From Verrucomicrobiales bacterium (GTDB taxonomy: Bacteria > Verrucomicrobiota > Verrucomicrobiia > Verrucomicrobiales > SLCJ01): 64,000 bases of DNA. Each line of letters begins with the position of its first letter. Position 1 is the stretch's first letter. Made by a program: the position numbers and the translations under genes. The notes under the pieces were generated by a model. It did not search any database and had not been told where the DNA came from. It saw nothing but the letters and a program-made list of their open reading frames with translations. Where the stretch lies: contig JBJTQJ010000031.1 in NCBI GenBank assembly GCA_046075565.1, forward strand, positions 29,493 through 93,492, given 5' to 3'. This document shows positions 11,583 to 30,898 of this stretch, in pieces.

Positions 11583-11670
11583 GCCTTGAGCACTCCCCAT
11601 CTTGCCCAATAATGTGAGTTTAGCACCAGCAATCTTGGTCTTCCGAGTTCTCGTTGTTCAAATCCTTGTA

Positions 11671-11801
11671 GGGCAAGAGCGAGACGCTCTTGCTACGCGT
11701 GACGTGGAAACTCAAGGGGATATGGCCTGTGAGGTTCCCTCGGAGTAGTAGCAAGACCGTTGAAGCCTTCGAAGCCTTGGCGAAGTAGGCCCGGTCTTGC
11801 C
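11671..11801. repeat. REPIN-like doublet, copy 1, carrying a 29-nt insertion
   Basis: GGGCAAGAGCGAGACGCTCTTGCTAC ... GTAGCAAGACCGT[insert]CCCGGTCTTGCC; second copy at 35388-35489. Confidence 0.8.
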
Positions 11802-11997
11802 CTGAGACCTGAGCGCACTTTGCCATTTCGAGTGCTAAACTGACAGTATTGCCCATCTTGCCCAAAGATGGGAAACCCATCCGGCTTACGGGCCACTCGA
11901 TTCGCCATTCTACAGCCAATCTTCCCGTTCCCGCGAATAGTCAAAAAGTCCTGCCCGATTTGCGAAGAGCCTGAAATGCTAAGCTCTGAATTTTTCA

Positions 11998-12627: not shown

Positions 12628-13003
12628 CTTTTTTACCGAACAGTCTTTATTCGTGTCCTCCCGCCGGATGATATCAAGCGGGGATTCTTCCGACATCGAA
12701 TGCAAAAACCGATTGGAAATCAGTGAGTTTTTTTTGGCCAAAGTGCGTATATCAGGCATCCTGCTGTTGAGGCCAGGTTTGGTCGAGTGCGCGGCTGATA
12801 TCAGGAGTCAGGGGACAGGAGGCCGATGTCGTTCTTTTCCCCATCCGTGGTCATCCGTGAAATCTGTGGTTCCTCAAGTCTCCGGGTTTGTCATTCCACA
12901 TCCATCCGGCAGCTGGCTCTACCGCGCGAGTTTCGGCCGAGGCACTTCGTGACCTCAGCCCTCCGGTGTTTCCAATGCCATCAGCTTCACGAGCAACCCA
13001 ATC

Positions 13004-14503
13004 TTATTCTTCTTCGCTGCCGCCGAGGGTGACGTTGATGTTGTAGGCGTTCTGGAGGTGGGCGTGGGCCTTGCTGGCTTGGCCGGATTTCGGGTAGCGT
13101 TTGCAGGTGAGCTGGAACGTGCGGATGGCACTTTCCTTGTCCTTGGCTTCCTCGTGGGTGAAACCGATTTGCAATGATGCCTCGGGGGCCGAAGCATCGA
13201 CGACCTTGCACTGGTTGTAGAGCACGATGGCCTCGGCGGTTTCGCCGAGTTTGCGGTGGCAGGCGGCCATGCGGAAGTAACTGTCCGGGAACCGGTCGCT
13301 CTGACGGTAGGTGGCGATGGCTTTTTTCCAGTCGGCGAGCTTTTCATAACATCCGGCAATGGCCCAGAGGTATTCGCCGACGTTGTTTCCATCAAGATCG
13401 ATCAGCTCGCGGTAGGCGGTGATGGCTTCGGCGGTTTTGCCTTCTTCCAGCAGCATCGCGATCAGATTCTTGCGTCCGGCGACCACATCCTTGAACTGAC
13501 CGTAAATCCGGCGGGCCTCATCGCGTTTTTCCCGCTTTTTGCACCACTCCGCCATGCGTCCCAACAATCCGTCGTCGTTGCCAAAACGCTTACCGATTTC
13601 CTCATACAATGCCCATGTCTCGGACGGCCGCCCGAGGGAGGAATTTAGATCGGCGGCGCGGTAAAGAAGGTCCTTCGCGATATCCGGTCGGGCGGCGCCC
13701 TCCGTGCGCAAGGTGTCGAGCAATTGGTCGGCGAGTTTGAGCGCGGCATTCCGTGTGCCGGGTTCCTTGAGCAGGTGTTCGACCGTTTTGGTGGACATGC
13801 CATAGACGGCATCGAAGAGCTCGGGTCCGCTGTAACTGGTGGCGAGGGCCTTTTTTCCATCGTCGAGCCGCTGGGCGAAAAAATGGAGTTGGGCGAGTTC
13901 CCGGCTGGCCTCCAAACAGGTCGCTTTGGAGGACTCCGTCCGTTTCACCTTGTAGGTGAGATCATTGAGCAACGAGAGTTTTTCCGCCTCATCCTGGTGG
14001 AGACGGGCATAGTGGAGCAGGTCGGTCCGCGAACGGATGGCAATCTCGTGCTCAGGGTATTCCTTGACCAGAAAACGGAACGCGTCCTGCGCCTTCTTGA
14101 CTTCGCCCATCTTGCGGTAGGCATCGGCAATGCAGTAGGCGGCCAACGTGGCTTCGTGGGATTCCGGCCAGTAGTCAATGACCGATTGGAAGCCCTCGCG
14201 CAGGGCGGTTTCGGGCTTCTTGAGGTGCATCATGCTGTGGCTCCACATCAATTGCGCGTAGGGCGCGCCGGGGCTCTTTTCGTAAAGGGTCAGGAACTTC
14301 TCGTATTCGGCCAGCGCAGTCTTGAAGTCGCCATTGGTGTAGAGCTTTTCCGCGATCCGGAGCTGATAGCGCTCGACCTCTCGCATCTTTTCAAAGGTCG
14401 GCACCTGGATCTGTTCGAGCGGGGATAGCCCGGCGAAAAGGCATGCGCCTTGCCCCATGCTCCACAGGGCGGTCAACAGGGCGATGACAATGGGCTTTTT
14501 CAT
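13004..14503 (-). CDS. Secreted tetratricopeptide-repeat protein
   Basis: Signal peptide MKKPIVIALL; TPR-like units such as YEKFLTLYEKSP, VIDYWPES, CKRYPKS; ATGA overlap with the upstream gene. Confidence 0.8.
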   Translation of the reverse strand: MKKPIVIALLTALWSMGQGACLFAGLSPLEQIQVPTFEKMREVERYQLRIAEKLYTNGDFKTALAEYEKFLTLYEKSPGAPYAQLMWSHSMMHLKKPETALREGFQSVIDYWPESHEATLAAYCIADAYRKMGEVKKAQDAFRFLVKEYPEHEIAIRSRTDLLHYARLHQDEAEKLSLLNDLTYKVKRTESSKATCLEASRELAQLHFFAQRLDDGKKALATSYSGPELFDAVYGMSTKTVEHLLKEPGTRNAALKLADQLLDTLRTEGAARPDIAKDLLYRAADLNSSLGRPSETWALYEEIGKRFGNDDGLLGRMAEWCKKREKRDEARRIYGQFKDVVAGRKNLIAMLLEEGKTAEAITAYRELIDLDGNNVGEYLWAIAGCYEKLADWKKAIATYRQSDRFPDSYFRMAACHRKLGETAEAIVLYNQCKVVDASAPEASLQIGFTHEEAKDKESAIRTFQLTCKRYPKSGQASKAHAHLQNAYNINVTLGGSEEE

Positions 14504-15918
14504 TTCGCGGTGGCGGCGAGCCATTTGTTGTATTCGGCGTGGGCGTAATGGATGATGTTCACTCCGAGTTGGTAGCAGGATTCCCAGACTTCGTGGGGCA
14601 CGCCGGAATGTCCGTCCGCCCACGCGTCGCCAATGTCGCCCGGATGATAATACACGGCAAGGCGCCCGTCCACCACCCAGCCGAGGGCATTGGAGCGACC
14701 ATGGGGGGCGACAATCGGCAGGCGTGGCAATGGATAAGGCACGCGGTGGATTGGGTGATCGAGATAGACCGAGATGGGCTCCACCCGTGGGAGAATCTTC
14801 GCCATCATGCCGACGAACTGCCCTTCCCAGCCGGAGCTGCCGCCATTGTCGCCGAACAACATGCCGTGGTGTTCCAGCAGGTAGGTGCGCAGGATTTTAA
14901 TCTCGGCATCGCTCACGTTGATGTTCCGCTGGCCGGTCATATAAACCATCGGCGGGCTCTTGCGGGGCGGGAAAGTTTTCAGCCGCGCGATGGCCATCGG
15001 CTCCGGGCGATCGCTGACCTGATGACCGAGGCGCACACCGTATTCGGTCAGCAGGTTGAGATCCGCCCCGCGGGCCATGTCTTGATCCCAATCTCCGCCG
15101 TCGTAGATCAAACGGATGAAGCGGACCTTGCCGCGCGGCGAACCGCGTGAAAATCCCGCGCCCTCGCCCAGCCCCTGGCCGATCTGATAAAGGTGTTCGG
15201 TCACTTCCAGCACGTTGAGCTTCACGTCATCGATGGGCGGCGGATTGAACAAGATGCTGCTGTAGGGATTGATGACGTATTTCTTTTTGATGACCTTCTG
15301 GATTTGCACCACCTGCTTGAGTTGCTTGACCTCGCCTCCGCCCAACGGGGACTCGTAGATGGAACAACCGGTGAGCCTCGTGAGGATGAGCAACACGCAG
15401 CCGAAGAGAAAGCTATAGGTGACGACGGTGAAAACCGACTGGCGGAGTTTGCGGCTGTTACGTCCGAAATACCATGCCGCCAATTGGCGCGGATCCCATA
15501 CCCGCTTCGTGGTGTCCGGAGGTTTGGCGCGTTTGGTTTCCCTTTCAATCCACCACACCGCCCAGGCGAGACCGATGAAGAATGCAATCACCGTCCCGGC
15601 CGTGGTGATGCCGTCTGCCATCCCGTAGGATGACCACAGCAATGGCAAATGGGCGGCGAGTTGCCAGAGCGGGAAGTAACATGCGGTCAAGACGGCGCGG
15701 AAAACGATGGGCGGGCCGGACCGCCAGCGCCGCAGCCAATAGAAACAAACGGGAAGGGCCGCCACAAAGCCGATCGCTTGCCCACCGGGCGAAAAAAAAT
15801 AGAACACGTGGGCATCGAGCCAAAACAAACACCAGATCACGGCGGCAATCCCCGTCAGCACGACCGGACGGCGGACGTGATGCGCCAAGAATTGCCTGAA
15901 CCGGGATCCATCCATCAC
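14500..15918 (-). CDS. Membrane-anchored DUF4159 domain protein
   Basis: N-terminal TM helices; FIRLIYDGGDWD, PMVYMTG, GMLFGD, HPIH and YQLGVNIIHYA typical of DUF4159. Confidence 0.75.
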   Translation of the reverse strand: MMDGSRFRQFLAHHVRRPVVLTGIAAVIWCLFWLDAHVFYFFSPGGQAIGFVAALPVCFYWLRRWRSGPPIVFRAVLTACYFPLWQLAAHLPLLWSSYGMADGITTAGTVIAFFIGLAWAVWWIERETKRAKPPDTTKRVWDPRQLAAWYFGRNSRKLRQSVFTVVTYSFLFGCVLLILTRLTGCSIYESPLGGGEVKQLKQVVQIQKVIKKKYVINPYSSILFNPPPIDDVKLNVLEVTEHLYQIGQGLGEGAGFSRGSPRGKVRFIRLIYDGGDWDQDMARGADLNLLTEYGVRLGHQVSDRPEPMAIARLKTFPPRKSPPMVYMTGQRNINVSDAEIKILRTYLLEHHGMLFGDNGGSSGWEGQFVGMMAKILPRVEPISVYLDHPIHRVPYPLPRLPIVAPHGRSNALGWVVDGRLAVYYHPGDIGDAWADGHSGVPHEVWESCYQLGVNIIHYAHAEYNKWLAATAK

Positions 15919-16427
15919 TCGAGGTCCTTCAGGAAATCATCGGTCCGGCTCTCAAGCGGGTTCTTATCCGGAGGAGCGGAAATTTCCCCGCCGATGCCGA
16001 GATTGGAAAGCGCATCGGCCGACGGGGCTGCGGGCTTGACTTCGGCGGGCGGGGTTTCGGGAGCGGCTGGAACCGTGGGCTGCGCCGGGGCTGCCGGGAC
16101 GGTCGCGGCTGCGGGTTGCGCGGCGACTGGCGCTTCATCCTTGGCGAGGAAATAGGGGATGGCGGTGAAGATGAGAATCGTGCCCGCAATCAGGGCGGTG
16201 GAAAGACCAAGGCAGCGGACGAGTTGGCTACCGGCGACAATCCCGAGCATTTCCTGCGGGCTTTTGCCTTTGAGTTCGCGCAGGAAGGCCTGCAACTCGG
16301 CCATGGTCTCACGGGAGTTGTTCCGCATCTCGCGCATGTCCGCCGTGGCGCTGGCGAGGGCACTTCGTTTGGCGGCCGGTTTCTCGGGTTGGATTTTCAT
16401 GACGTGGGATTCACTCTTCGGGTTCAA
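15915..16427 (-). CDS. Hypothetical single-TM protein with a Pro/Ala-rich C-terminal region
   Basis: Helical N-terminus, one TM helix, PAAPAQPTVPAAPETPP linker; overlaps both neighbours. Confidence 0.7.
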   Translation of the reverse strand: MNPKSESHVMKIQPEKPAAKRSALASATADMREMRNNSRETMAELQAFLRELKGKSPQEMLGIVAGSQLVRCLGLSTALIAGTILIFTAIPYFLAKDEAPVAAQPAAATVPAAPAQPTVPAAPETPPAEVKPAAPSADALSNLGIGGEISAPPDKNPLESRTDDFLKDLE

Positions 16428-16812
16428 GGATGTGGATCAAATCACCGCCGGCTTCGGCGATGGCGGCGATGACCGGTTCAAAATGGGTGGCTTTGGCTTC
16501 GCGGTGGACCTTGAGGAACACATGACGTTGTCCGGCTGGGGTATCGCCGAGGATGGCGTTCAGCGCGGCGGCCAGTTCGGCGGGAGTGGTCTCCTTGCCA
16601 TCGAGATAGGTTTTGAATCCGGTGTCGATGGTGACACTGGCCCGCGGCGCGGCGACCATTTCCACCTCCTTGAGTTTGGCCGGTTGCCACTGGATGTGGC
16701 TGTCGTCCTGCGCCCGGGCGAGGATGACAAAGAAGATCAACAAAAGAAACGCGATGTCCCCCATGGCGAAGGTGGGAATCGACGCGGTCAATTGTTTGCG
16801 CGGAAGTTTCAT
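16411..16812 (-). CDS. exbD: Biopolymer transporter ExbD/TolR-family protein
   Basis: MGDIAFLLLIFF TM motif containing the conserved Asp. Confidence 0.85.
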   Translation of the reverse strand: MKLPRKQLTASIPTFAMGDIAFLLLIFFVILARAQDDSHIQWQPAKLKEVEMVAAPRASVTIDTGFKTYLDGKETTPAELAAALNAILGDTPAGQRHVFLKVHREAKATHFEPVIAAIAEAGGDLIHILEPEE

Positions 16813-17231
16813 TCGACGTTGATGGTTTCCTTCGATTCAAGTTCCAGAGTCAGGATGCCGCCCGCTTGGTCAATGACCTGCGAGACCTGCATCCACCTCG
16901 GATAAGGAGTCTCCGGTGAACTTTTGACCACCACGATGCGGTCCTCCTCGCGGGACTTTTGTTTGAGTTCGGCGGCGAGGCGGGTAGCGAATTCCGGGAG
17001 TTGCAGCGGGTTGCCGTTGAGCACGATGCTGCTGGGCGTGATTGAGACCTCGAGGTTCTGGCTTTGGTCGCGCTTTTCGGCTTTGGCTTCGGTCTTCGGG
17101 AGGGTCTGCGGCACGCCGGTCTCCGGCTGCACGGCCGCGCAAACCAGGAAAAAGATGATCAAGGTAAAGGCGATGTCCGAGCTGGCGCAGCCCGGCGGAT
17201 CGACCAAGAGGGTGCCGCGTTTCAGTTTCAT
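16809..17231 (-). CDS. exbD: Biopolymer transporter ExbD/TolR-family protein
   Basis: SSDIAFTLIIFFLV motif; IVVVKSSPETPY periplasmic domain. Confidence 0.85.
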   Translation of the reverse strand: MKLKRGTLLVDPPGCASSDIAFTLIIFFLVCAAVQPETGVPQTLPKTEAKAEKRDQSQNLEVSITPSSIVLNGNPLQLPEFATRLAAELKQKSREEDRIVVVKSSPETPYPRWMQVSQVIDQAGGILTLELESKETINVE

Positions 17232-17947
17232 GGTTCGCGTGACTTGATGGTCATTCGGAGGGTGACAACTTCGATCATTTCGGCGGCGGAGCTTTCCACC
17301 TGCAGGACGAACTCATTGATGATACCGGTGAAATAGTTGAAGGCCATGTAGGCCGGAATACCGACAATCAAGCCGAAGGCGGTGGTGAGCAGCGCGACCC
17401 GGATCCCGGCGGCAGCAGCCACCACGATGTTCTGCTGGCCGATATTCGCCTCGATGTCCCCGAAGGCGACGATCATGCCCTGCACGGTGCCGAGGAATCC
17501 GAGCATCGGCGCGACCGACGCGATGGTCGCGAGGATGGGCAGGTGTTTTTCCAAGGCGGCGACGATGTGCACACCGCAATTTTCCATGCTTTTGATCACC
17601 TGTTGTTCGAGTTGGGCGGGATCGTAGTCGAGGCGGCGCAGCACGAGATACTTGCGCAGGCCGTTGGAAAGCACGGCCGGCACGGGGCCGCGGGCGGCAT
17701 CACACAGTTCGAGGGATTCCTCAATCCGATCTTCGGATAACAACGTGACAACCTGTTCGCGGAGCGCGGAAGAATCCGTTCCCAACATTTTCAGACTGCG
17801 GTAGCGTTCGATGACCACGGCAAGTCCGAGGATGAGCAGGAGGAGGATCGGCCACATGAAAATCCCGCCTTCCAGCAGGTGTTTCATGGCACCGCTTTCG
17901 AAAAATCCGGCGGCAAGGGTGGATGGAATGGGAAGATTCATGATCAT
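17228..17947 (-). CDS. exbB: MotA/TolQ/ExbB proton-channel protein
   Basis: GGIFMWPI, LATIASVAPMLGFLGTVQGMI, GIRVALLTTAFGLIVGIP. Confidence 0.92.
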   Translation of the reverse strand: MIMNLPIPSTLAAGFFESGAMKHLLEGGIFMWPILLLLILGLAVVIERYRSLKMLGTDSSALREQVVTLLSEDRIEESLELCDAARGPVPAVLSNGLRKYLVLRRLDYDPAQLEQQVIKSMENCGVHIVAALEKHLPILATIASVAPMLGFLGTVQGMIVAFGDIEANIGQQNIVVAAAAGIRVALLTTAFGLIVGIPAYMAFNYFTGIINEFVLQVESSAAEMIEVVTLRMTIKSREP

Positions 17948-20900
17948 TCGTTGAGATTCGCCTCGCGGTCGAACTGGTTGAGCAACTCCGGCAGGGCGAG
18001 GCGGCCGCGAGAGTATTTGGCGGCGTCGCTTTCGGGGAAATCCCAACGGCAGCGGTTGTAGCGCCGGAACGCGTTCGGGATATCCTTGCCCATACGGTAG
18101 CTTTCCCCCGCCCAGAACAACGCCTGCGCGGTGAGTTCTTGTTCGGGATAACGTTTCACGAAGGCATCAAAGGCGGAACCGGCCTTGATGAATTCATCCA
18201 TCTTGTAGTGGCATTGCCCGATGCGGAACGCCATCTTGGGCGCCCATTCGTGGTTGGGGAAACGTTCGACAAACTTGATGCCGACCGTGGCTGCGACAGC
18301 AAAGTCTTCTTTCACATAAAAATGCTCGTTGATACGCAGCATGACATTGGCGATCAGCGGGCTCTTCGGATAAGTGGCGGCGAGAGTCACGTAGGATTCG
18401 AGAGCTTCGTCCAACTCACCCGCCTCTTCATGGCATTGGCCGAGCTTGTAGAGTGCGTCGGGCGCGAGATTGTGTTCCGGATAGTTGCTCACGATGGATC
18501 CGTAGGCGGCGATGGCATCGTTCCAATCCTTGGTCTCCTGGGCGAATTGGCCCAACAGATAGGAAACCCGGGGTTTGTATTTCGGATCGGGATGATCCTC
18601 GTGGAGTTCGCGCAACACGCGCTTGCCGGCATTGAGGGCGGCCGTGGACTCCTCTTCGTTGTCGAGTTTCCGCTGGCCTTTGAAAAGCTCGAAGTAGCTT
18701 TCGGCAATGTGGAAACGGGTTTGCGTGGCCAGCTCCTCGTCCTTGAAGACCTTGCTGAAGGCGGAGAATTGGCCATCGGTGCCGACTGCGAGGGGGATTT
18801 CGATTTTTAGGATGGTTTGTCCGTCCTCGGTGTGCGGGACGTTGTCGAGATAGCCGACGGTCAGCGCATCCCCGAAAAAGCACTCGATGCCGCCCTCGAA
18901 GTTGGCCGGCTTGGGGGCGGAGGAGGCGATGAGTGGAAACGCGCCGCTGAAAATCCCGCTGTGGCTGACGGTTTCCTCCAGTTCGACCGTTTCATCTTCT
19001 CCGGAGGAAGTCATGATCCTGACCATCGCCTTGTCGCGCTGGTCGGAAAGATCGCGATCCGGATCCTCCAAGAGGATGAAAAGTTTTTTCCCGACATACC
19101 CGGTGTCCACATCCTCGGCATACCCGCTATCGGTGATGCGCAAGGTCGCGGCCGAACGGAGGGTGGCCTTGGCATCCAGGGTGGCCTCTTTTCCATCCGG
19201 GCGCGAGACATCCTGGTAGCTCGCGGTCAGGGTATCGGCTCCGGTGACATTGAGCACGCGCATGCCGGGAAGCGCGGTGGCGGTGGCGCTGATAGCCGCG
19301 CCTTCAACCGGCACCGTGGCCGGGCTTTCGATGCCTCCGAGCATCAGGGGAATCCGGCCAACAAACCGGCCTTCCAACAAGGCGGGATTGGGAGCATCAT
19401 CCAGCGTGGCATTCGGCGGAGCGTGGTCACGAGAGAGGAAACAACGGATACGAGACTTGGTTCCCTGGGTGGTGGTGACATCGATGCTCACCTCACTGCG
19501 CGAGTTCTTCGCCTCGTCGGGGTCAATCACTTCGATGGTCAGGGGCAGCCGGTAATCCACCGTGGCCACGTGGTCTTTCGCGGGCGTGGTCATCACCGGA
19601 GAAAATGCTGGTGGTCCGCCGAAGGGCTTTTGACTTTCCACTATCTGGATGATGGCCTCGGTCGGTTCATTGATTAGAACCACGGCCTCACGCGGGGAGG
19701 CATGGCCGGGGAAAATATTCTGCCGGTCGGTGTAGCGCAGATAAAGCTTGTCGCCGCGCTTCACCGCGATTTTGCCTTCGGTTGCTGCATTGGCCGTTTC
19801 GATTTCGGCGGTGAAGACTCCCGTCGAGGGGCCGGTTTCGACGGCGGTAAGCTTGATGGGAGCATCGGCATTCACCTGCACTTCCACCTCCACCGAGTCG
19901 CGGTCGAGGCCGATGTCCAAATCAAAATCAGTCACTTCCGCGACGATGCGCTCGCCGGGTTCGAAGCGCAGTAGTTCCTTGCGGGAACCCTGGACCGAGC
20001 CGTCGCCGGCGCGGTTGAAACCATAGGTGATCGGAACCATGGTCCCGTTGTGATAGGTGGCCGTGAGGTCTTTGGTCAGCAGGCGGTTGCGCTGGCGTCC
20101 CCCGGCAGTGATTTCGTCCAGATAGGAGACCGTAACGGTGTCGCCCGGCGCGAGTTCAAGGATGTTGTTGCCGGCCAGCTCGAGCACATCCTCCGCCGGC
20201 GGAGTGTGGCGCTTGCCTCCGCCCTCAACCTGCACGTTGCTCACCGCGATCGATTCACCGCGGTATTCGAGGAATTCGAAATCGATGAAGCGCAGCGGGC
20301 GCGAAGGCATCGAGAAACTCCATGTGTTGGCTTCCTTTTTGATTCCCGAGGACGATTGTGGGGCAGCTTCTGTTAGGCCGAGCACGGCGGCGACGTCAAA
20401 ATCCGCCGCGCTGAAAGGTAGCATTTTCACCGCCGATGACTGGCGGCTTTCCCGGGCGCGCTGGGCTTCGACCGCCTTGGTGGCGGGGGTGGCGAGTGAA
20501 AAGATAGTCAACTCGTGCGAGCCTCGTCCAAGGAACACATCAACCGTGCGCCCATCCTCGCCAAGCGGAAGCTCCAACTTGCCGTCGAGCATTATGGCGG
20601 ATTTTGCACCAGTGACCCCGAGGCGCACGGCGCCATCGCGTTCCTGGACGAAGGAACCGGACCAGACGAGGAAGTGGGCGTCCGTGTTGTTTTCGGGAGC
20701 TTGCCATGCCAATCCATCGACCTTGCGCGTTTCCGTTGGCTCGGACTTGAGAACAAGTTCGGCGATCTGCTCCCAGGTGTAGGACTCCCGCAATTCCTTC
20801 GCGGGTATCTTGTAAATGCGGAGCTGCATTTGCTTGTCGGCGAATGTGATCCGCTTTTCCGCCGGGGCGGGGGGGAATTCATCGAGAAGATACCAATACC

Positions 20901-23900: not shown

Positions 23901-25005
23901 GCTTTGATGTTTTGGTGGGACTGCCGGCGATCACCTTGAGCAAGCCCCTGGCCGCGCGCTGAGCATCCTCACCGCACCAATTGACATAAGCCTGGGGCAG
24001 ATCCTGGTTGTCTGGGTCGTTGAGCATCACCTCTTCGGCAAGGGCGAGGGCGAGCGAGCTTTCCTTGGCCTCGGCCGCTGTGTAGGCGGCGCGGGCAAGC
24101 TGCCCGTAGCGATCCTCGCGGCGGGGAAAAGCCGCCAGATACCGACGAGCCTCGGCTTCGATTTGCTTGGGCGCGATCTTCGCGGCGCCCATCGCGGAAA
24201 TGAGGCTTCGGTGGGCCTCATCCCGACCGGGACCAATTGCCTTGCGGAATGAGTCGACGGCATTTGCATGCTGGCCGAGTTGACTTTCAAATTGGCCGGC
24301 GAGGAAGGCAATCTCGCGTTGCTGCGCTTCATCAGCCGGTGCCTGGCGGCGGACGAGATTCTTGGCGATGACCAAGCCTTCCGCCCATTGCTCCGAACGC
24401 CGGGCGGATTTCATGCCTTGGATTCCGCATTCCGTCAGCGCTGCATCGGTTGAAAGTTTTTCCGTGAGTTCGATGGCCAGAGCAGTCGCTTGTTTCAGAG
24501 ACGCGGGGTTGTTGGCCACAATGAAGAGATCCAGCGCCTGAATGCCATGACGGGCGGCGCCACCGTTCTTCCAGATATCGCGGCGGAGGGACGCGGCCAT
24601 CGGACCGCGGGCGGTGCGTTCGCAGGCGGTGGCCAATCGATCGCGGGCCTCATTGGCCAGCGGGTCGTTGGGGAACATTTCCAGAAACTGCCTGCCGGTC
24701 GTGATGACATCCTCGTGGCGCGCGGTCGCGGCGAAGCCGTCCATGAGTTTGATGGTGGCCTCGGCGCGGCGGGGGTGGGCGGTCTGCGTGCGCGAGAACC
24801 TGCCGGCCGTGCGGATCAATCCGAAGGGTTGACCGTCCTGCCAATAGTGGTCCATGAGTTCCAGCATCATCCCGGCGGCGGCGGGCGAAATCTCGGCCGT
24901 CTCCTTAAGTCGGGCCTCAAGGTCAGCGGCCTTGTCGGCGGCTGCCGTGAAGGGCGTCCAACCTAACAGGAAGAGGGCAACCAACGATTGGGAGAAAGTT
25001 TTCAA
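17944..25005 (-). CDS. Giant secreted TPR protein (2353 aa) with discoidin/PA14-like and repeated beta-sandwich domains
   Basis: Signal peptide; TPR arrays at both ends (e.g. APDALYKLGQC, FVKRYP); AIDHDPKTFW discoidin-like motif; repeated DxDxD...G(V/I)F modules. Confidence 0.8.
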   Translation of the reverse strand: MKTFSQSLVALFLLGWTPFTAAADKAADLEARLKETAEISPAAAGMMLELMDHYWQDGQPFGLIRTAGRFSRTQTAHPRRAEATIKLMDGFAATARHEDVITTGRQFLEMFPNDPLANEARDRLATACERTARGPMAASLRRDIWKNGGAARHGIQALDLFIVANNPASLKQATALAIELTEKLSTDAALTECGIQGMKSARRSEQWAEGLVIAKNLVRRQAPADEAQQREIAFLAGQFESQLGQHANAVDSFRKAIGPGRDEAHRSLISAMGAAKIAPKQIEAEARRYLAAFPRREDRYGQLARAAYTAAEAKESSLALALAEEVMLNDPDNQDLPQAYVNWCGEDAQRAARGLLKVIAGSPTKTSKLRAVLALDVYRDRLKDTANAREAAAAYLKSPPEEGRTEDIVKFLYESAPSDEAFRQDLATIVASSKAFPHVRGFHERLWKPEPSEKNRHREWQAARGEHQNDNIARLWRQTREDGGKAGQSCKELLQANPTPEQRRLLLARLAYVYRHHLGGKAKEGSAEHYQNLCREMPKDAEAASRWLEAADYSTPEMRVAAANHLLGIPPANVSSDNWVRLCATKNQAVTRKAIPWITASSKESDQPLSQSARLGDIMSELGMKTEAVAWWRSRMDLDPMDGESVSCALRVAATLKPEEAASFLKSRYEAKQRHNAAYAAEVANIAFRSGDIDGMEPILKSARTRADQSPFSPWNMGEWPARGWLEAARGSKDLPDEKKARVFRIVRDLKMGRLSAEAGMELMDKEPRTIDRLLNVQRLILMADPHHESWKRLYPFAQSALAKNDPSLAAAILNGLLNSIGAVGEAEKNDARALLRKAYSMAGGLGADIPSDSPLAPLLQVVLHLRLGETELAERAYQSQRALFDAHRNELPVELILFAAETHINKGGAGEHERAEDILRGWLLKFGEAQNTDIRDKARIQLLLARNYQQAGQYDIARAEFTTVLNLYKDQPEAIQARFGIGETFMAQKVYEQAAEIFTDLSENPLPSISIRAKFMLGVVALRQDQHQESRRIFLSVLENSPDADLANETLFNLAEVYGIEQRFLAQLETLRTVGRLGHESNVWHTPGTALSVIVQDPDLGISHGNTRIPVLIRTEPGDDREESFLTSGGAGRGIFLTEVPTLLGVAEAGDGTLQLTGGDTIVVDYPEDFKKQFQFEFLSNTRLRVASDGSLDVASSEIVDEDKKTFTENLKEEIAQPEVPVSRSVARPKDQVKPGNLIYIQAKDGDRDLTNAPDKVGIKLTSASGDEVQVEIAESSAHGGVFQGTVATGELPAGAKATDSALDHNALMAIDHDPKTFWRSEPDGSAPKSLTIDMKELRAVESVALSSPDTEQEAPVRMRVRGSHDGRYWYLLDEFPPAPAEKRITFADKQMQLRIYKIPAKELRESYTWEQIAELVLKSEPTETRKVDGLAWQAPENNTDAHFLVWSGSFVQERDGAVRLGVTGAKSAIMLDGKLELPLGEDGRTVDVFLGRGSHELTIFSLATPATKAVEAQRARESRQSSAVKMLPFSAADFDVAAVLGLTEAAPQSSSGIKKEANTWSFSMPSRPLRFIDFEFLEYRGESIAVSNVQVEGGGKRHTPPAEDVLELAGNNILELAPGDTVTVSYLDEITAGGRQRNRLLTKDLTATYHNGTMVPITYGFNRAGDGSVQGSRKELLRFEPGERIVAEVTDFDLDIGLDRDSVEVEVQVNADAPIKLTAVETGPSTGVFTAEIETANAATEGKIAVKRGDKLYLRYTDRQNIFPGHASPREAVVLINEPTEAIIQIVESQKPFGGPPAFSPVMTTPAKDHVATVDYRLPLTIEVIDPDEAKNSRSEVSIDVTTTQGTKSRIRCFLSRDHAPPNATLDDAPNPALLEGRFVGRIPLMLGGIESPATVPVEGAAISATATALPGMRVLNVTGADTLTASYQDVSRPDGKEATLDAKATLRSAATLRITDSGYAEDVDTGYVGKKLFILLEDPDRDLSDQRDKAMVRIMTSSGEDETVELEETVSHSGIFSGAFPLIASSAPKPANFEGGIECFFGDALTVGYLDNVPHTEDGQTILKIEIPLAVGTDGQFSAFSKVFKDEELATQTRFHIAESYFELFKGQRKLDNEEESTAALNAGKRVLRELHEDHPDPKYKPRVSYLLGQFAQETKDWNDAIAAYGSIVSNYPEHNLAPDALYKLGQCHEEAGELDEALESYVTLAATYPKSPLIANVMLRINEHFYVKEDFAVAATVGIKFVERFPNHEWAPKMAFRIGQCHYKMDEFIKAGSAFDAFVKRYPEQELTAQALFWAGESYRMGKDIPNAFRRYNRCRWDFPESDAAKYSRGRLALPELLNQFDREANLNE

Positions 25006-27194
25006 AATCCTCCTTTCTTGAGGGCTTCGACAATCTTGGCGGCTTCCGCCGCGATCTCGCTTTCGGGGAAATCATGGATGAGTTGTTCGAAGCGCCTGCG
25101 GGCCTCCGGTTTGCGGTCGAGTTTGTAAAGGCAGCGGCCGTAGTTGAAGAGGATCACATCGAGGAAATTCGCATCGGGATGATCCGAGAGCACGTTTTCA
25201 AAAACATCGGTGGCACGCAGATAGTCTTCCTTCTGATAGTAGAACGCCGCCATCTTGGCGACCGCATCACCGATGCGCCCGGAATCCGGAAATTGCTCGT
25301 AAACCTTCTGGTAGGCGAGGAAGGCGCTTTCGTAAAGCTGAGCGGATTTGGAGGCCTCGGCCTTGGTTGCCATGGCCTCGTAGCACTCGCCGATGTGGAA
25401 TTGCGCTTCGCCGCGCAGCGGGCTGTTCGTCAGCTTGGTGATGCTCGTGTATAGGCTGATCGCCCGGATGTGGTTCTCGCGCTTCCGCTCGACATGGGCT
25501 TGCTGGAGCATCGCCTCGTCAACGAAACTGCTCGCCGGAAACTCGGCCAGCAGGCGTTGGCTCATTCCCAAAGCGAGGTCGAGTTTGTCCATCGCGAAAT
25601 AGATGCGCCAAAGCTGGACATAGGTTTCTTCCAGCGGTTTTCCGCCGGCTTTGCGGGCTTCACCGAGGATTTCCTCGCAGACGGCGAGTGCTTCCCCGTA
25701 TTTGAGATCGGCTTTGGCATTGAGGCCGAATTCCTTGTAGTGATTGCCGACTTCCGTAAGGGCGGATGCGGTGCGGATTCGGGTATTGAGCCTTAATTGC
25801 TCGTCGGAAATATCGGTCCGGGTGACCCTGACCTCGCCGAGATTGCCCTCGATGATGCCGGCTTGGGCGGTGCGAATTTGCGGGCTATCGGTCAGGTTTT
25901 TCTCATCGAGATAGACCAGACGCATGATTTCCCCGGGTTCACCGGCAAGGCTTCCATCGGCTGCGCCTGGGCGAAGGGGAAATGCTTGGCGAAAGACACC
26001 GGCTTGATCGGTTTCGCGCAGCACCACCGGGAAACTCCGCACCACCACCAGCGGGTCGATTCGATCCTTGAGCTGGCCGCCATCTGCGGCTTCGGCCAGT
26101 TCCCCGGCCGCCACCCGGCGGGCGATTTCCTCGTCGATTTCATCCGGAGTCTTGCGACGGAAAAACTGCGCTTCGGCATTGAGCGAATCAGCGCCCGGGC
26201 TGATGTCGTGATCGGCATCGATGACCTGGAGGTGAACCGGCTTGCCGAGAACAACCGCTTGGATCTCCTGTTGGTAGGAACCATCGAGAATGCGGGCGAT
26301 GCCATTGCCGAAAACCTCGACCGTCTTCAAGCGCTTCTTGTTGGTCGATTTGTCGGCAGCGTGGGCGTCGACATAGGTGACTTCCACAGAATCGCCGCCC
26401 CGGAGATCGAGAATGCCATTGCCCGGGGTGGCAGGTCCGAGCGTGGTGGCAATCGCACCGAGGGCGATCCGGGCATTGCGCCCGGCGAGATCGCAGGCCA
26501 CGATTTCCTCGTCGCCACTTTTCGTGAGGCAGCGGATTTTTATCTGCTCACCGGGCTGGAGAATGGCAAAATCGAGATCGTCGATCTTGATATACAACCG
26601 TTTGCCCGCTTCGAGTTTCTCGAGCTTTGCGTCCTCACCGGCCCGGGCGGTGCCGACTTTTTCGAGCGCCTCAATGGCGCGGCTGTAATGGCCGAGTTTG
26701 AAGTGGCCGAGGCCGATATAATAGTAGGCTTCATTGACGTGTGTCGAAGTGGGGAACCGCTCGATGACATCACGCATGATGGTGAAGCACTTGCCATAGT
26801 TGGCGGCCTCGTAATAGCAGGTGCCGGTATGCACAAAGGCGTAGGCGCGGCGTTCATCGTTGCCATTGGCTTCCACGGCGGCGGCTTCGTAGTGAAGACG
26901 GGCTTTGTCGTATTCGCGGAGTTCAAGACGCAAGTGATCGGCCAAGCGGAGATGTGCGTCGAAGCGGGTCTCACTGCCCGGGTAGCGTTCAATGACCGAC
27001 TCCCAGATCTCGAGAGCCTTTTCGTTCTCACCGACTTCGAGGCGCGCATCACCGGCCTGCAACAACTTGCGGGCGGCGCGATCCTCGATGATGGAGCCAC
27101 GTTCGGCTTTCTCCGCTTCCTGGGCGGGGAGGACGGCGGTCAGCGCGAGGATGATGGTCAGGACGCGGGCGGTTGGGAAAGCCATGAGGGTCAA
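25002..27194 (-). CDS. Secreted TPR protein with central beta-sandwich modules
   Basis: Signal peptide; TPRs (VIERYPGS, EAYYYIGLGHF, LIHDFPES); DxD modules shared with the giant protein. Confidence 0.8.
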   Translation of the reverse strand: MTLMAFPTARVLTIILALTAVLPAQEAEKAERGSIIEDRAARKLLQAGDARLEVGENEKALEIWESVIERYPGSETRFDAHLRLADHLRLELREYDKARLHYEAAAVEANGNDERRAYAFVHTGTCYYEAANYGKCFTIMRDVIERFPTSTHVNEAYYYIGLGHFKLGHYSRAIEALEKVGTARAGEDAKLEKLEAGKRLYIKIDDLDFAILQPGEQIKIRCLTKSGDEEIVACDLAGRNARIALGAIATTLGPATPGNGILDLRGGDSVEVTYVDAHAADKSTNKKRLKTVEVFGNGIARILDGSYQQEIQAVVLGKPVHLQVIDADHDISPGADSLNAEAQFFRRKTPDEIDEEIARRVAAGELAEAADGGQLKDRIDPLVVVRSFPVVLRETDQAGVFRQAFPLRPGAADGSLAGEPGEIMRLVYLDEKNLTDSPQIRTAQAGIIEGNLGEVRVTRTDISDEQLRLNTRIRTASALTEVGNHYKEFGLNAKADLKYGEALAVCEEILGEARKAGGKPLEETYVQLWRIYFAMDKLDLALGMSQRLLAEFPASSFVDEAMLQQAHVERKRENHIRAISLYTSITKLTNSPLRGEAQFHIGECYEAMATKAEASKSAQLYESAFLAYQKVYEQFPDSGRIGDAVAKMAAFYYQKEDYLRATDVFENVLSDHPDANFLDVILFNYGRCLYKLDRKPEARRRFEQLIHDFPESEIAAEAAKIVEALKKGGF

Positions 27195-28447
27195 GCAAGC
27201 AGTTCGTGAATCGGATTGGCTTCCTTGCGGACGAGGCGCATCGGCCGCCCCTGCGGAGTGATGATTTCCTTGGCGAGATCAATGCCGAGCGCTTTGCAGA
27301 TGGTGGCGTGGAGATCCGCCACGTTGACCGGACGTTCGGCTGGTTCCATGCCATCGGCATCGGAGGCACCGAGGATGCTGCCGCCTTTGATGCCGCCACC
27401 GGCCATCAGACAACTGAAGCAGCGCGCCCAGTGATCGCGACCCGCGGCCTCGTTGACCCGGGGCGTGCGGCCGAATTCGCTGAGGACCACGACGAGGGTT
27501 TTGTCCAGCATGCCATTTGCCTTGAGGTCGGAAAGCAGCGATGCGATTCCGGGATCCATGACCGCGCCGTGGGCGCGCATCGCTTCGAAGATATTGCCGT
27601 GGTTATCGAATCCTCCGCGGTTGATCTGCACAAACCGCACGCCTTTCTCCACCAAGCGGCGGGCGAGCAAGGCACCGCGCCCGAATTCCGTGTTGCCATA
27701 ACGTTCGATGGTTTGCGGATTTTCCTCCTCAAGTTCAAAGGCCTTGAGCGCCGGACTTTCCATCAGCGCGACCGCATCACGGAGGGCGATTTCGGAAGCC
27801 TTCATGGCGTCCGCTCCGGTGAGACCGGATGTGCGGGCATTCATGCGTTCGAGGATTTGCAGGCGCTGCATGCCGCGCGCGTGGTTGATCCCTTCGGGAA
27901 ACGCGAGATACGGATCCTTTTCGCCGGGGCGACCGACGAAGTAGGCTTCGCATTGTTGGCCGAGGTATCCGGAGCGGGCGGCTTGGCCGCTGATGCTGAC
28001 AAACGCGGGTAGATCGCCGAGCGGTTCGCGTTCATGCACGACAATCGATCCGAGTCCCGGGTGGAGGATGTTGGGTGATTGGGCGAAGCCTGTCTGCAAC
28101 TCGTATTGGGCGCGGCCGTGATCGCCATTGGTGCCGGCGATTGAACGGATCAGCGCGGCATGGTGCATTTGTTTGGCGAGCTGGGGAAAAATTTCCGAAA
28201 TTTCCATGCCATCGACCGAGGTTTTGATCGGCTGGAACTCACCTTGGACCGGACGCCCGGGTTTCGGGTCCCACGTATCGAGATGGCTCATGCCGCCGTC
28301 GTTCCAGAAAAGGATGACGTGCTCGGCCGTGGCCCTGCCAGTCCCCGCGCGGGCCAACAACCCGCTGATAGGCATACCCAGCAGCGACGCGCTGAACATC
28401 TTCAGCATACGGCGGCGGGTGGATTGGTAATCGGTGCAAGCGTTCAT
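27191..28447 (-). CDS. DUF1501 domain protein with a Tat signal
   Basis: TRRRMLK twin-arginine; GGMSHLDTWDPKP, LLARRLVEKGVRFV, SEFGRTP, GRDHW. Confidence 0.92.
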   Translation of the reverse strand: MNACTDYQSTRRRMLKMFSASLLGMPISGLLARAGTGRATAEHVILFWNDGGMSHLDTWDPKPGRPVQGEFQPIKTSVDGMEISEIFPQLAKQMHHAALIRSIAGTNGDHGRAQYELQTGFAQSPNILHPGLGSIVVHEREPLGDLPAFVSISGQAARSGYLGQQCEAYFVGRPGEKDPYLAFPEGINHARGMQRLQILERMNARTSGLTGADAMKASEIALRDAVALMESPALKAFELEEENPQTIERYGNTEFGRGALLARRLVEKGVRFVQINRGGFDNHGNIFEAMRAHGAVMDPGIASLLSDLKANGMLDKTLVVVLSEFGRTPRVNEAAGRDHWARCFSCLMAGGGIKGGSILGASDADGMEPAERPVNVADLHATICKALGIDLAKEIITPQGRPMRLVRKEANPIHELLA

Positions 28448-28465
28448 GATTGTGCGAATTCGGGT

Positions 28466-30898
28466 TTAAGGCAGATAACGGAACTCGTGGCTGTTGAGCA
28501 AAGCCCAGCGCAGGTCGGCCATACCATCTTCCCGGTTGTTCGCCAGCAATGCCAAGGCTTCGGCTTTTTCTTCCGCACTGGGCAGGCGGGTCAGGATTTC
28601 CTGATAGGCCCAGTCGATGGCCTTGTCGGGATCCTTTTGCAGGATGGCGTGGAGCGGTTCGAGCGGGCCGACCCGCGAGGCTTCATGGGTCATGCGGCCA
28701 TTGAGCATCATGAGCTGCTGGCGCAGCGATGGGGACGCGTCGCGGAATTCCCCGAGGGCCGCGCGTTCCGGTTGGCCGAACACGCGCAGGAAGTGGGCCG
28801 GCGGAGCCGGAGTGGCCATGTGCATTGCGCTGTCGAACCGCGGATTGTCATCCACGGTCTCCACGACGGTCTTGGTTTCGAATTTCGTCGAGTTACCCGC
28901 GTTTTGCCTTTGCATGGCCAACATGCGTTCGGCTTCGATTTGTTGATCGGACATGGCGCGCATGGACTCAAGTTCCGATCGTTCTTCTTTGGTCAGAATG
29001 GCATTAAAATCCAGTTTCAGGGTGGATTCGAGATCGTAGCCATCATCGCGCATCGGCGGTGCCGCCGGGGCTTCCGCCATTGCCGGTTCCTTGGCGGGAG
29101 TTGTTTGCCCTTTGATGGGAACGCGCACCTCACGCGTGACTTGTTTGGCGTTGGCTCCCGCCGGCCATTTGTGGTCGCTGAGGTGACCGGCCACGATCAC
29201 GCTGTCGAAGAGGACCTCGCCAATCATCCGCCGGGTGGGAGCGGCGGAGAAGTTTTTCTCGCTCTCCTCGCGAACTAACACCGGCGTCGAAGCGGGCAGG
29301 GCCGTGCGGCGGTAGGCATCGGACAAAGTGATGATGCGGATGAGATGACGGAAATCATAACCACTGGCCACGAATTCGCGGGAGAGGAAATCCAAGGCCG
29401 TCGGGTTGCGCGGAAGATTGTAGTCGGAAAAATTATCGAGTGACTCGACAAACCCGCGCCCGATGAGTTCCGCCCACACGCGGTTGACAAATGCCTTGGC
29501 GAAATAGTCGTTGCGCGGATCAGTGATCAGGCTGGCCAGTTGGTCGCGCAATTCGCTGGTCCGGTAGAGGTCGCGATGCACGTCGAGCGCCCGGCTTTCG
29601 CGTTGCGCTTCTTCGAGCACGACATCGCGCGGTTTTCCGGGAGCGGGTTGGACGCCATCAAGCAAGGCATCGAGTTCGGCGTTTTCTTTTCCGGAGGACG
29701 CGGACTTGCTCTTTTCCTCGCGTGCTTTCAGGAATCGCACGAGATGGGCGGGTGGTGTCTCCGGTTCGTCGAAGCGGATGGGGAACCGCGGTTTGACCGG
29801 ACTGCGGGTCCCGCCATTGGCTTTGTCTTCGGGTGGCCAGAGCACGGTCATTTCCTGACCCTCGGTGGTGTAAACCATACCCTGCTGCCGCCCCTGCACC
29901 TTGCGGGTCTTGCCGAAAAATGCGGCGAACTCATAAAAGTCCCGCTGTTTCCAATCATCGAATGGATGGTCATGGCACATCGCACAGCCGATTTGGACAC
30001 CCATAAAGACCTGCGCCGATGAAGCGGCCAGTTCCATCGGGTTCACATCGTCACCGAGGATGAAGCCGACCGCCGGATTCGCATTGGCCCGGCCCGACGC
30101 GCTGATCAATTCGCGCACCATTACATCATAGGGCTTTTCCTTTTCAATCGATCCGTGCACGTAGGCGAGCAGTTGGTTTCCACCAGTGACATTCGAGCGT
30201 ATCCGCAGCGTATCCGCCATAAAGACCGTCCATCGATCGGAGAATCGCGGATGGGCGAGGAGTTGGTCGATGAGTTTTTCGCGTTGGTTGCCATCCATGC
30301 CTTTGAAAGCTTTCAACTCGTCCATGGTCGGGATGCGTCCGATCAGATCGATGGTGGTCCGGCGGAGAAAGGCGGAGTCGCTGATCGTCCGGGTGGTGAT
30401 CAACTCTTTCCCGGCGTTTTCGCGTTTGAGGATGTCGTCCAGGATGGCGGCGGCTTCGGCGGCGGATGCGGGCGGTTTTGCAGGAATGGAGACCCGTTTG
30501 GGCGGTTCGGGTTTGCGCTCGGTCAGGATCACTCCGGATGGCCAATAGGCGCCGGCGCGCACCCACTCTTCGAGCAGTTTCACTTCGGCTGGCTCTAAGG
30601 CTTTCCCTTCGTCAGGCATGACGCCTTGGTCGATGGGGCGGAGAAGGACACGGACCAGCATCTCGCTTTCTTCGGGTTTGCCGGGGACAAGGGCCTCGGC
30701 GGTGTCGCCGCCCTCGAGCACTGCCGCATGGGTGTCCATGCGCAAGCCACCCTTGCTTTGCTCCGCATTGTGGCAACGAACACAATTCTGTTCGAGGATC
30801 GGCTGGACCAGCGTCACGAAGTCCGGCCCGGTGGCACGCGCAAAAAACGGACTGGCTAGGACCACGCAGGCCCCGATGGCTGGTATATGGGTGCGCAC
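28466..30898 (-). CDS. Planctomycete cytochrome c / DUF1549 (PSCyt2) / DUF1553 (PSD1) protein
   Basis: CVRCH and CAMCHDHPFD heme-type motifs; FLRRTTIDLIGRIPT; VNRVWAELIGRG; DLRWALLNSHEF. Confidence 0.92.
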   Translation of the reverse strand: MRTHIPAIGACVVLASPFFARATGPDFVTLVQPILEQNCVRCHNAEQSKGGLRMDTHAAVLEGGDTAEALVPGKPEESEMLVRVLLRPIDQGVMPDEGKALEPAEVKLLEEWVRAGAYWPSGVILTERKPEPPKRVSIPAKPPASAAEAAAILDDILKRENAGKELITTRTISDSAFLRRTTIDLIGRIPTMDELKAFKGMDGNQREKLIDQLLAHPRFSDRWTVFMADTLRIRSNVTGGNQLLAYVHGSIEKEKPYDVMVRELISASGRANANPAVGFILGDDVNPMELAASSAQVFMGVQIGCAMCHDHPFDDWKQRDFYEFAAFFGKTRKVQGRQQGMVYTTEGQEMTVLWPPEDKANGGTRSPVKPRFPIRFDEPETPPAHLVRFLKAREEKSKSASSGKENAELDALLDGVQPAPGKPRDVVLEEAQRESRALDVHRDLYRTSELRDQLASLITDPRNDYFAKAFVNRVWAELIGRGFVESLDNFSDYNLPRNPTALDFLSREFVASGYDFRHLIRIITLSDAYRRTALPASTPVLVREESEKNFSAAPTRRMIGEVLFDSVIVAGHLSDHKWPAGANAKQVTREVRVPIKGQTTPAKEPAMAEAPAAPPMRDDGYDLESTLKLDFNAILTKEERSELESMRAMSDQQIEAERMLAMQRQNAGNSTKFETKTVVETVDDNPRFDSAMHMATPAPPAHFLRVFGQPERAALGEFRDASPSLRQQLMMLNGRMTHEASRVGPLEPLHAILQKDPDKAIDWAYQEILTRLPSAEEKAEALALLANNREDGMADLRWALLNSHEFRYLP

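Follow-up and report, generated by a model that had tools for sequence, protein, structure and literature searches.

A conserved ten-gene cassette of Verrucomicrobiota and Planctomycetota joins ExbB/ExbD motor genes, a candidate DUF4159-tipped transducer and a dedicated DUF1549/1553-DUF1501 pair

The gene layout TPR-tolQ-tolR-tolR-transducer is already in print for bacteria of the Planctomycetes-Verrucomicrobia-Chlamydiae (PVC) group, in which vWA force-transducer loci are known computationally and have no function assigned (PMC12204202 section 8). The Agl-Glt complexes combine one TolQ and two TolR with two anchors of single-pass type, periplasmic tetratricopeptide repeat (TPR) scaffolds and a giant TPR protein (PMC3169522, PMC11761067). 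In the Ton system, cryo-electron microscopy places Ser16 and His20 of TonB in contact with Ser34 and Trp38 of ExbB, and the Ser-x3-His pattern is the SHLS signature of TonB and TolA (bioRxiv 2024.10.08.617233); the beta-strand directly past the anchor is the D-box that binds ExbD (PMC10907165). Of the protein families in Planctomycetes and Verrucomicrobia that lack an explanation, DUF1501 and DUF1549/1553 belong to the most expanded, and their DUF1501-PSCyt/PSD1 pairs are PVC modules without an assigned function (PMC3542564). In this work, we analysed 64,000 nt of a Verrucomicrobiales bacterium (GCA_046075565.1, contig JBJTQJ010000031.1, positions 29,493 to 93,492; the whole of this stretch is called the window), in which ten open reading frames (ORFs) on the minus strand, g1 to g10, run from 30898 to 13004 (Table 1). 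This cassette is real, conserved and uncharacterised, and no published description of it was found in literature searches whose coverage excluded subscription papers.

The closest loci in print, those with vWA transducers, share with the cassette the PVC hosts, the order TPR-tolQ-tolR-tolR-anchor and an anchor plan of transmembrane helix (TMH), linker and a C-terminal domain other than that of TonB; the vWA locus of Tichowtungia also has two transducers (PMC12204202). The C-terminal domain of g9, however, is DUF4159, which is present in 23 of 23 aligned g9 proteins, none of which matches the VWA family at E <= 1; the vWA matches of the genome lie elsewhere. Furthermore, g9 has a multi-TM N-terminal part and a Cys after the last helix, g8 is without a C-terminal domain, and the cassette has lost both the anchor His and the ExbB Ser, whereas the vWA loci are SHLS-anchored. 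It also has three TPR proteins with surface-layer (S-layer)-type immunoglobulin (Ig), CBM32 and PA14 domains, and the DUF1549/1553-DUF1501 pair. The name DUF4159 is absent from the main and supplement text of PMC12204202, although the models of its Fig. 4a and SI 3 could include such loci. DUF4159 has been placed in the glutamine-amidotransferase clan CL0014 (PMC4702930).

The coordinates and order of the ten co-oriented genes in the original prediction, which was made from the sequence alone, were borne out by the ORFs and by Pfam (PSCyt1, DUF1549 and DUF1553 in g1; DUF1501 in g2; TPR in g3, g4 and g10; MotA_ExbB in g5; ExbD in g6 and g7; DUF4159 in g9), and the Pfam scan of the ten proteins assigned no family to g8. 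Eight of the nine junctions had been described as overlapping. The 18-nt gap between g1 and g2 and the 4-nt overlaps, found at seven junctions, stand, and the count falls to seven of nine with the starts used here. The difference lies at g7/g8, where the ATG at 16400, the start that aligns with close orthologues, leaves a 10-nt gap and the TTG at 16427 gives a 17-nt overlap. The g2/g3 overlap likewise needs a TTG start, the ATG at 27185 leaving a gap of 5 nt. The GC content of the cassette (0.56-0.61) is that of the window, its flanking genes are housekeeping genes, and no barrel family was found among the 30 flanking genes scanned. Promoter-like sites (3 seen, 5.0 expected) and terminator-like sites (37 seen, 23.9 expected) gave nothing interpretable in a sequence scan. 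Searches of the ESM Atlas brought up same-family clusters only.

The cassette is one branch, here called type A, of a family with eight core genes, which encode ExbB, a pair of ExbD proteins, a pair of membrane anchors and a trio of exported TPR proteins. Of 427 stretches confirmed in a collection scan, the best 80, representing 73 loci, were analysed; they come mostly from Verrucomicrobiota, with several from Planctomycetota and a few under other labels. All ten genes are present in 29 of the 73 loci (27 in the same order, 2 rearranged), and many of the others stop at a contig edge. Long flanks are available for 37 loci; 29 of these are complete, and at least eight are split or rearranged past the range covered. 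The g1-g2 pair has shifted to behind g7 in 7 loci, yet is retained. Where a split locus is without g2, all five genomes tested carry it elsewhere, at 69-85% identity, and where g9 is missing, all five tested carry that gene elsewhere; these two samples of the split loci may overlap and are not summed. The unit is thus conserved across both phyla, and far beyond chance, because it recurs in other genomes. In the cultured Zavarzinella formosa DSM 19928 the full set of ten genes is present, divided between two places, and Haloferula helveola has at least g9 (HAHE_31820).

Co-occurrence within genomes points in the same direction. A full-length relative of g4 is found in 6 of 60 related genomes, and the dedicated g2 in exactly those six with a type-A g4. 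In 301 Planctomycetia genomes, drawn independently of the earlier samples, type-A g9 occurs in 25, the dedicated g2 in 25 and both in 24. These counts are not independent of one another, owing to kinship and operon linkage, and the rearranged and split loci are their informative part. By comparison, in 31 genomes with only a sister-branch g9 the best match to g2 reaches at most 46% identity, against 65% in two type-A genomes. Among orthologous loci g2 is about as conserved as ExbB, with 60-90% identity.

The same genome (G000) contains a paralogous locus on contigs C124 and C8. It encodes a TPR protein, a TPR-Ig protein, a pair of giants, one ExbB with two ExbD, and anchors that resemble g8 and g9, and it has no DUF1501 pair. 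In a phylum sample of 300 genomes drawn evenly, 16 matches at E <= 1e-43 were obtained in 15 genomes, none of them type A, and in a Planctomycetota sample of 300, 17 genomes match besides the centre. The sister loci read have the same core in several gene orders, some of them shortened, and among those loci a DUF1501 pair occurs only in the one type-A locus, L173. The pair had been counted as a module of the ten-gene operon; it is not in the family core, and the dedicated DUF1549/1553-DUF1501 pair goes with type A alone. Some further features of these loci were observed. Between the two giants of the paralogous locus lies a 133-aa ORF with a GxxExxY-like motif, and G003 C28 and G242 have the same layout. 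Tandem DUF4159 genes occur in L181:14397-17626, where they are two consecutive g9-like transducers, in G221 C60 and in G085 C2. Downstream of sister type-B loci lie a 1380-aa protein with three PA14 domains (L143:1628-5770) and a DUF6288+HEAT protein (L147:1497-5540), and, judged from sequence, a gene of the latter kind also follows the paralogous loci of G000 and G003. At the usual position of the giant, L133:7085-15271 (G067) has a 2728-aa ORF with an N-terminal HTH_3 match, unmatched by the reference giants.

The channel residues of the motor, Asp19 of each ExbD and Thr154 and Thr189 of ExbB, are unaltered, as predicted from the sequence, which supports a motor driven by the proton motive force (PMF); the Asp is kept in 58 of 58 g6 rows and 55 of 55 g7 rows (one pattern miss was settled by eye), and the Thr ring of ExbB is retained. 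On the other hand, the docking surface has changed. The TM1 Ser of ExbB is present in 31 of 32 sister loci versus 0 of the 61 type-A rows with a residue there. The membrane part of sister g9 ends in Ser-x3-His, with the His in 28 of 35 proteins, and in type A this His is found in 0 of 45 rows, its position in g9 being Ser169. The sole sister exception for ExbB is L130, in which the TM1 Ser and both anchor His are gone. Aligned sequences thus indicate that type A lost both docking sides and kept the Asp and Thr of the proton path, and that the docking residues on the two sides of the interface change together. L130 (12086-17402, G075) lost the Ser and both His independently, and the N-terminal part of its g9 has 737 aa. 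The genome has five further ExbB/ExbD loci (C40:8158-13381, C52:43683-47332, C10, C118, C108), two of them with TPR proteins of about 900 aa, one beside MglA/MglB-like genes and one Tol-like.

The cassette had been described as lacking TonB, TolB, Pal and any beta-barrel, and family-model scans of g1 to g10 indeed gave no match to TonB_C, TolB, Pal or beta-barrel families. The wording "without TonB" nevertheless needs revision, as g8 and g9 are homologous to sister-locus anchors that bear the Ser-x3-His helix of TonB/TolA, and g9 has the plan TMH-linker-globular domain of a force transducer. The His pattern matches 15 of 17 g8-like sister regions (the match in L175 and both misses are apparently not g8 proteins), the His is visible in most of the sister g8 sequences read, and g8 has a weak profile match to the His-bearing paralogues (E 2.9e-7 and 3.5e-5 in a four-sequence test). 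Judged from these alignments, the g8 and g9 helices descend from Ser-x3-His anchors whose His has since been lost in type A. After the helix, sister g9 usually continues with Gly-Cys, a Val/Ile-rich strand, a Lys-rich tract, a Gly-rich linker and DUF4159, and g9 has a beta-strand-like box with a Lys-rich tract at aa ~199-217 and a Pro/Gly linker before DUF4159. The conserved Val/Ile-rich stretch stands 15-30 residues after the helix, at the position of the TonB D-box, and a sequence search matched g9 to PDB 4i66 at E 3.3e-5. A complex prediction of the periplasmic parts of ExbD1 and ExbD2 with g9 186-262 scored 0.01 against a mark of 0.32, which speaks neither for nor against such a contact. 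At E <= 0.001 the g8 family comprises 505 clusters. Proteins of the best 150 are short (median 168 aa, maximum 248 aa) and have in common the C-terminal peptide NPLE..DDLL..L(K/E). By profile g8 and g9 are unrelated (probability 0.3%). Gly-Cys follows the g9 helix in 43 of 45 type-A and 26 of 35 sister proteins (Cys185 in g9) and resembles a lipobox. A disulfide between Cys31 of g6, found in 54 of 58 type-A orthologues, and Cys185 of g9 was considered and dropped, since the Cys occurs in just 11 of 55 sister ExbD rows against 28 of 35 sister g9.

The enzyme pair follows the two-gene form of the PVC modules, PSCyt1/PSCyt2/PSD1 adjoining a twin-arginine DUF1501 (PMC3542564), with PSCyt1, DUF1549 and DUF1553 of g1 and DUF1501 of the adjoining g2 all above the Pfam cut-off. 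It differs in that its clade is tied to a proton motor, a locus type of which the accessible text of that paper makes no mention. Its link to the cassette, claimed earlier, holds, as the pair is kept after rearrangement and after operon break-up. The link to heme fares less well. The cytochrome c domain named in g1 is present there and optional among orthologues: 29 of 41 have two CxxCH and 12 have one (two of these being frameshift pieces), the domain is missing in 10 intact orthologues, and the DUF1549 motif CxxCHxHP is invariant. An electron-transfer core was therefore rejected. A general machine for DUF1501 maturation was also rejected, since the cassette is missing even from relatives in which a first look gave as many as 116 DUF1501 candidates. 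As to g2, which carries a twin-arginine-like leader, all 50 rows of a VIA comparison of its model belong to the alkaline-phosphatase superfamily (best PafA, Z 8.6, root-mean-square deviation (rmsd) 5.5, 247 aligned), among them the envelope transferases EptA, LtaS and PbgA, and all rows listed by Foldseek belong to it too. Invariant His, Asp and Glu residues fit a metal site. The motif C/S-x-P-x-R of formylglycine sulfatases is not in g2. Sequence matches of g2 in the PDB were weak (uL18 at E 0.07-0.6, sulfatases at E 0.28-1.7). A fold of the alkaline-phosphatase superfamily is the one to which g2 inclines, as far as its weak model goes.

The TPR labels given to g3 and g4 were correct and incomplete, because both also contain Ig-like domains and g4 has CBM32 and PA14 folds. 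The three scaffold proteins g3, g4 and g10 have signal-peptide-like N-termini and score above the cut-off of the CpoB/YbgF model TIGR02795, a score summed over several stretches of generic repeats, and g3 is similar in sequence to g4. The model of g4 1082-2085 is all-beta (pLDDT 80.8); Foldseek ranks the Nitrosopumilus S-layer protein 1 to 4 (best E 3.6e-22), and VIA aligns 8c8k with Z 13.8 (rmsd 7.9, 221 aligned), PA14 of 5a3l with Z 13.3 (rmsd 3.1, 146 aligned) and CBM32 of 7blg with Z 12.2 (rmsd 2.1, 111 aligned), PA14 being inserted inside CBM32. Pfam F5_F8 narrowly misses its cut-off in g4 (E 4.5e-6), and the anammox S-layer model NF052345 matches at E 2.7e-11, far below its cut-off. The sequence profile of the g4 middle did not reach the S-layer, which was reached by folds alone. 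An Ig repeat profile finds four repeats in g4 and one clear repeat in g3, and its matches in the genome are confined to the five scaffold proteins of the two loci, cassette and paralogue. Of 42 long ORFs from other loci, 33 keep 4-5 Ig repeats and 21 match the CBM32 profile; the type-A PA14 profile matches one, the only type-A giant among the 33, and a divergent PA14 could escape it.

These folds raise the question of envelope architecture, in which the Ig repeats of g3 and g4 would form a lattice, either in the periplasm or on the surface, or else a stud linking the membranes. The motor would put this structure under tension or assemble it, and g1-g2 would modify the lattice or a wall polymer. 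The S-layer matches, the 4-5 Ig repeats kept in 33 giants of all branches, the CpoB-like TPRs and the envelope transferases among the g2 matches are consistent with this reading, as are the press-stud-like contacts between inner and outer membrane in Planctomycetes (PMC5394234). We nevertheless regard it as unlikely. Tandem Ig arrays are common and the rmsd to 8c8k is large; the tandem Ig fold shared with the Nitrosopumilus maritimus S-layer (PDB 8c8k-8c8r), by g3 only by profile, is a likeness of fold drawn from sequence and models that covers only a part of g4, flanked by TPR solenoids, and more than half of g4 is helical repeat, whereas the S-layer protein is all Ig (PMC11153153). Moreover, the genome has a separate Tol-like locus (C108), and the cassette is patchy, with 28 carriers among 301 Planctomycetia and 6 among 60 relatives. 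A general crateriform structure was rejected on the same ground, 28 of 301 Planctomycetia being too patchy.

The cassette works like a motor system of the Ton/Tol/Agl type and yet lies outside the membership of Ton, Tol-Pal and Agl-Glt, to none of which, in canonical form, profile searches assigned it. With Ton it shares the motor with Asp and Thr ring, and with Ton and Tol its family shares the ancestral Ser-x3-His anchor, followed, to judge by sequence, by a beta-strand-like stretch. TonB_C and the SHLS His are absent, and the TonB_C matches of the genome are on C119 and C108. With Tol-Pal it shares the CpoB-like TPRs, while the TolA C-domain, TolB and Pal are not in its locus and TonB_2 matches lie on C108 and C46. 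Canonical Ton or Tol was rejected because the TonB_C, TonB_2 and TonB-receptor matches of the genome all lie on other contigs. The cassette might still energise import, if the outer-membrane channel were encoded at another site and DUF4159 took the place of the TonB C-domain. The transducer-like plan of g9 and the sugar-binding folds of g4 would suit this role, and the uptake of dextran into the Gemmata periplasm, which is sensitive to carbonyl cyanide m-chlorophenyl hydrazone (CCCP), lacks an explanation (PMC5394234). However, a receptor or barrel is conserved beside none of the loci read, the genome has just two TonB-receptor matches, and one of them adjoins a canonical TonB, so that we consider import quite unlikely.

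The Agl-Glt parts list (PMC3169522, PMC11761067) is matched by one TolQ-like and two different TolR-like genes, which would assemble as ExbB5 with an ExbD heterodimer, and by the two anchors in the membrane, the TPR scaffolds of the periplasm and a giant TPR protein. An adhesion or motility complex that shifts a surface contact could be built from such parts, and some sister loci share further traits with Agl-Glt: an N-terminal FHA, recalling GltG, in 2 of 5 long sister g9 scanned (L120:213-2420, L125:17585-19654), and a double CxxC at the N-terminus of two sister g8 (L124:2057-3100, L164:3066-3776), recalling the GltJ zinc ribbon. Type A, however, is without FHA and zinc ribbon, neither of its anchors has TonB_C, and outer-membrane barrels of the Glt type and an adhesin are missing, whereas the enzyme pair is extra. 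The giant of the cassette has a signal peptide, in contrast to the cytoplasmic GltI. The GltG model NF033760 matched two short stretches on other contigs, below cut-off, and no Glt model was listed for g3, g4 or g10 in the family-model scan, in which the Agl/Glt sequences themselves were not compared. Furthermore, the Agl core by itself is insufficient for motility (PMC3169522). Such a complex is in our opinion improbable.

We hypothesize that the ten genes encode one PMF-driven machine of the Ton/Tol/Agl motor family, which would work within the periplasm on a large TPR/Ig scaffold. By analogy with AglRQS, the motor would assemble as ExbB5-ExbD1-ExbD2. The force transducer would be g9, its last helix seated on ExbB via a remodelled, His-free interface, again by analogy, its beta-strand held between the two ExbD and the scaffold pulled by its DUF4159 head, while g8 would serve as an additional tether, docking by its C-terminal peptide in a groove of a TPR protein; the placing of g9 and g8 on TPR grooves follows the predicted contacts of GltG and GltJ on GltD (PMC11761067). 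The weakest step concerns the job: the pull would move a captured envelope or nutrient polymer, held by CBM32/PA14 of g4, past g2, a presumably Tat-exported enzyme with a probable phosphatase fold, which, partnered by g1, would remove or transfer a phosphate- or sulfate-type group. It is very probable that the ten proteins serve one function, and g9 is probably the transducer, by its likeness to known ones. The reading we tentatively prefer, at somewhat below even chances, is a machine that uses protons to pull within the periplasm through a transducer tipped with DUF4159 and that serves an enzyme of polymer processing; we infer the job of the machine by analogy, and polymer processing as that job is doubtful.

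Several observations weigh against this machine. The His is reported to be essential in Ton and Tol (bioRxiv 2024.10.08.617233) and type A is without it, so the motor could be coupled weakly or not at all. In five sister loci other than L130, g9 is without the His while ExbB retains the Ser; g8 was read in four of these loci, and the g8 His is present in three of them but was not found in the remaining one. The counts of 0 of 61 and 0 of 45 represent one loss event (plus the parallel case of L130), not many, because type-A ExbB falls on one side of a single long branch (support 93, unstarred, in a quick tree with 18 of the 62 type-A rows). To a large part, g2 and g9 occur together because they are inherited as one operon, six g2 candidates were scored per Planctomycetia genome, which limits that count, and there are two exceptions, G862 with g9 only and G664 with g2 only. 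The g2 model is poor (mean pLDDT 45.5), and Foldseek gave no match to it at E <= 0.001. PA14 of g4 is without the Asp-Asp pair, and CBM32 without the His, that typically act as sugar ligands, so no substrate is indicated. In the loci read, no outer-membrane channel is conserved and a glycoside hydrolase is not a conserved neighbour. It could also be that the type-A anchors no longer engage the motor, or that g1-g2 rides on a horizontally moved operon; the loss of His and Ser, the patchy distribution and the sister branches that work without g1-g2 would fit. The interface has, however, changed on both sides jointly with invariant channel residues, and g2 is as conserved as ExbB and kept after rearrangement and separation, which makes uncoupling or hitch-hiking improbable. 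A bolder version of the pulling machine, in which type A is a separate class of proton machine whose Ser-His/Ser-Trp coupling is replaced by a new membrane interface and whose pull drives a periplasmic enzyme instead of acting on a protein of the outer membrane, with g9 possibly lipidated or cleaved at the conserved Gly-Cys, is in our view unlikely.

Table 1. Coordinates and characteristics of the cassette genes, of domains within g4 and of the paralogous locus.
Feature	Position	Strand	Characteristics
g1	28466..30898	-	810 aa, signal peptide, PSCyt1 cytochrome c, DUF1549 (CxxCHxHP), DUF1553; Pfam and invariant columns
g2	27191..28447	-	418 aa, DUF1501, twin-arginine-like leader TRRRMLK (read in the sequence), dedicated highly conserved clade
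g3	25002..27194	-	730 aa; signal peptide; a CpoB-like TPR block at each end and, in the middle, one or more S-layer-type Ig repeats (aa 195-294)
g4	17944..25005	-	2353 aa, signal peptide, helical/TPR, Ig, CBM32 with inserted PA14, Ig, C-terminal CpoB-like TPR
g4 Ig repeats 1-2	21112..21747	-	aa 1087-1191, 1234-1298; repeat profile, all-beta model
g4 CBM32/F5-8C fold	20218..21087	-	aa ~1307-1596, split by PA14 aa ~1390-1540 (nt 20386-20838)
g4 later Ig repeats	18775..19965	-	aa 1681-2077; nearest Nitrosopumilus S-layer protein
g5 ExbB/TolQ	17228..17947	-	239 aa; Thr154 and Thr189 kept; TM1 Ser replaced by Leu38 (nt 17834-17836)
g6 ExbD/TolR 1	16809..17231	-	140 aa, Asp19; Cys31 at periplasmic end of helix
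g7 ExbD/TolR 2	16411..16812	-	133 aa, Asp19
g8	15915..16400	-	161 aa (or from TTG 16427); one TM helix, then a Pro/Ala linker; no folded C-domain
g9	14500..15918	-	472 aa; several TM helices in the N-terminal part, the last one (aa 160-184) TonB-like; DUF4159 aa 266-459
g10	13004..14503	-	499 aa, signal peptide, CpoB-like TPR protein
Paralogous eight-gene locus	G000 C124:56942-74952 + C8:1-5079, on into C85:1-1447		His-bearing anchors

Outside the cassette, the window has an element downstream of g10 at 11589-11873, with inverted repeat arms at 11607-11633 and 11825-11851 (81% complementary) and related 29-nt copies; another inverted pair lies at 11421-11509, and the whole has the look of a REP-like or small non-autonomous mobile element. 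The ORF that follows g10 (11998-12759, minus strand, 253 aa) has a lower GC content, two C-terminal hydrophobic stretches and no confident family, and is not conserved in orthologous loci. A 201-aa protein adjoining transketolase (57129-57734, minus strand) matches the Whirly family at E 6.9e-9. A PIN-domain gene with its upstream partner (60235-61238) and a DUF3368 gene (62416-62925) are probable toxin-antitoxin pairs, and two exported-looking proteins of 821 aa (43728-46193, minus strand) and 559 aa (35543-37222, minus strand) have no Pfam match at E <= 1e-8.

Three features of the cassette surprise most: the canonical docking pair has been lost on both sides, a DUF1501 clade is dedicated to it, and its motor scaffold contains S-layer-type domains. 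The loss of the anchor His together with the ExbB Ser is a natural experiment on how a 5:2 motor engages its transducer, and DUF4159 would be a third type of transducer head, next to TonB_C and vWA. The many paralogues of DUF1501 and DUF1549/1553 hamper genetics; here a single-copy clade is tied to a motor that offers a point-mutation handle, ExbD Asp19, and with Z. formosa as a cultured carrier the cassette makes the long-unexplained DUF1501 family testable. If type A were a separate class of proton machine, this would be the first mechanical role for the DUF1501-DUF1549/1553 pair, exerted on an S-layer-type Ig scaffold inside the periplasm.

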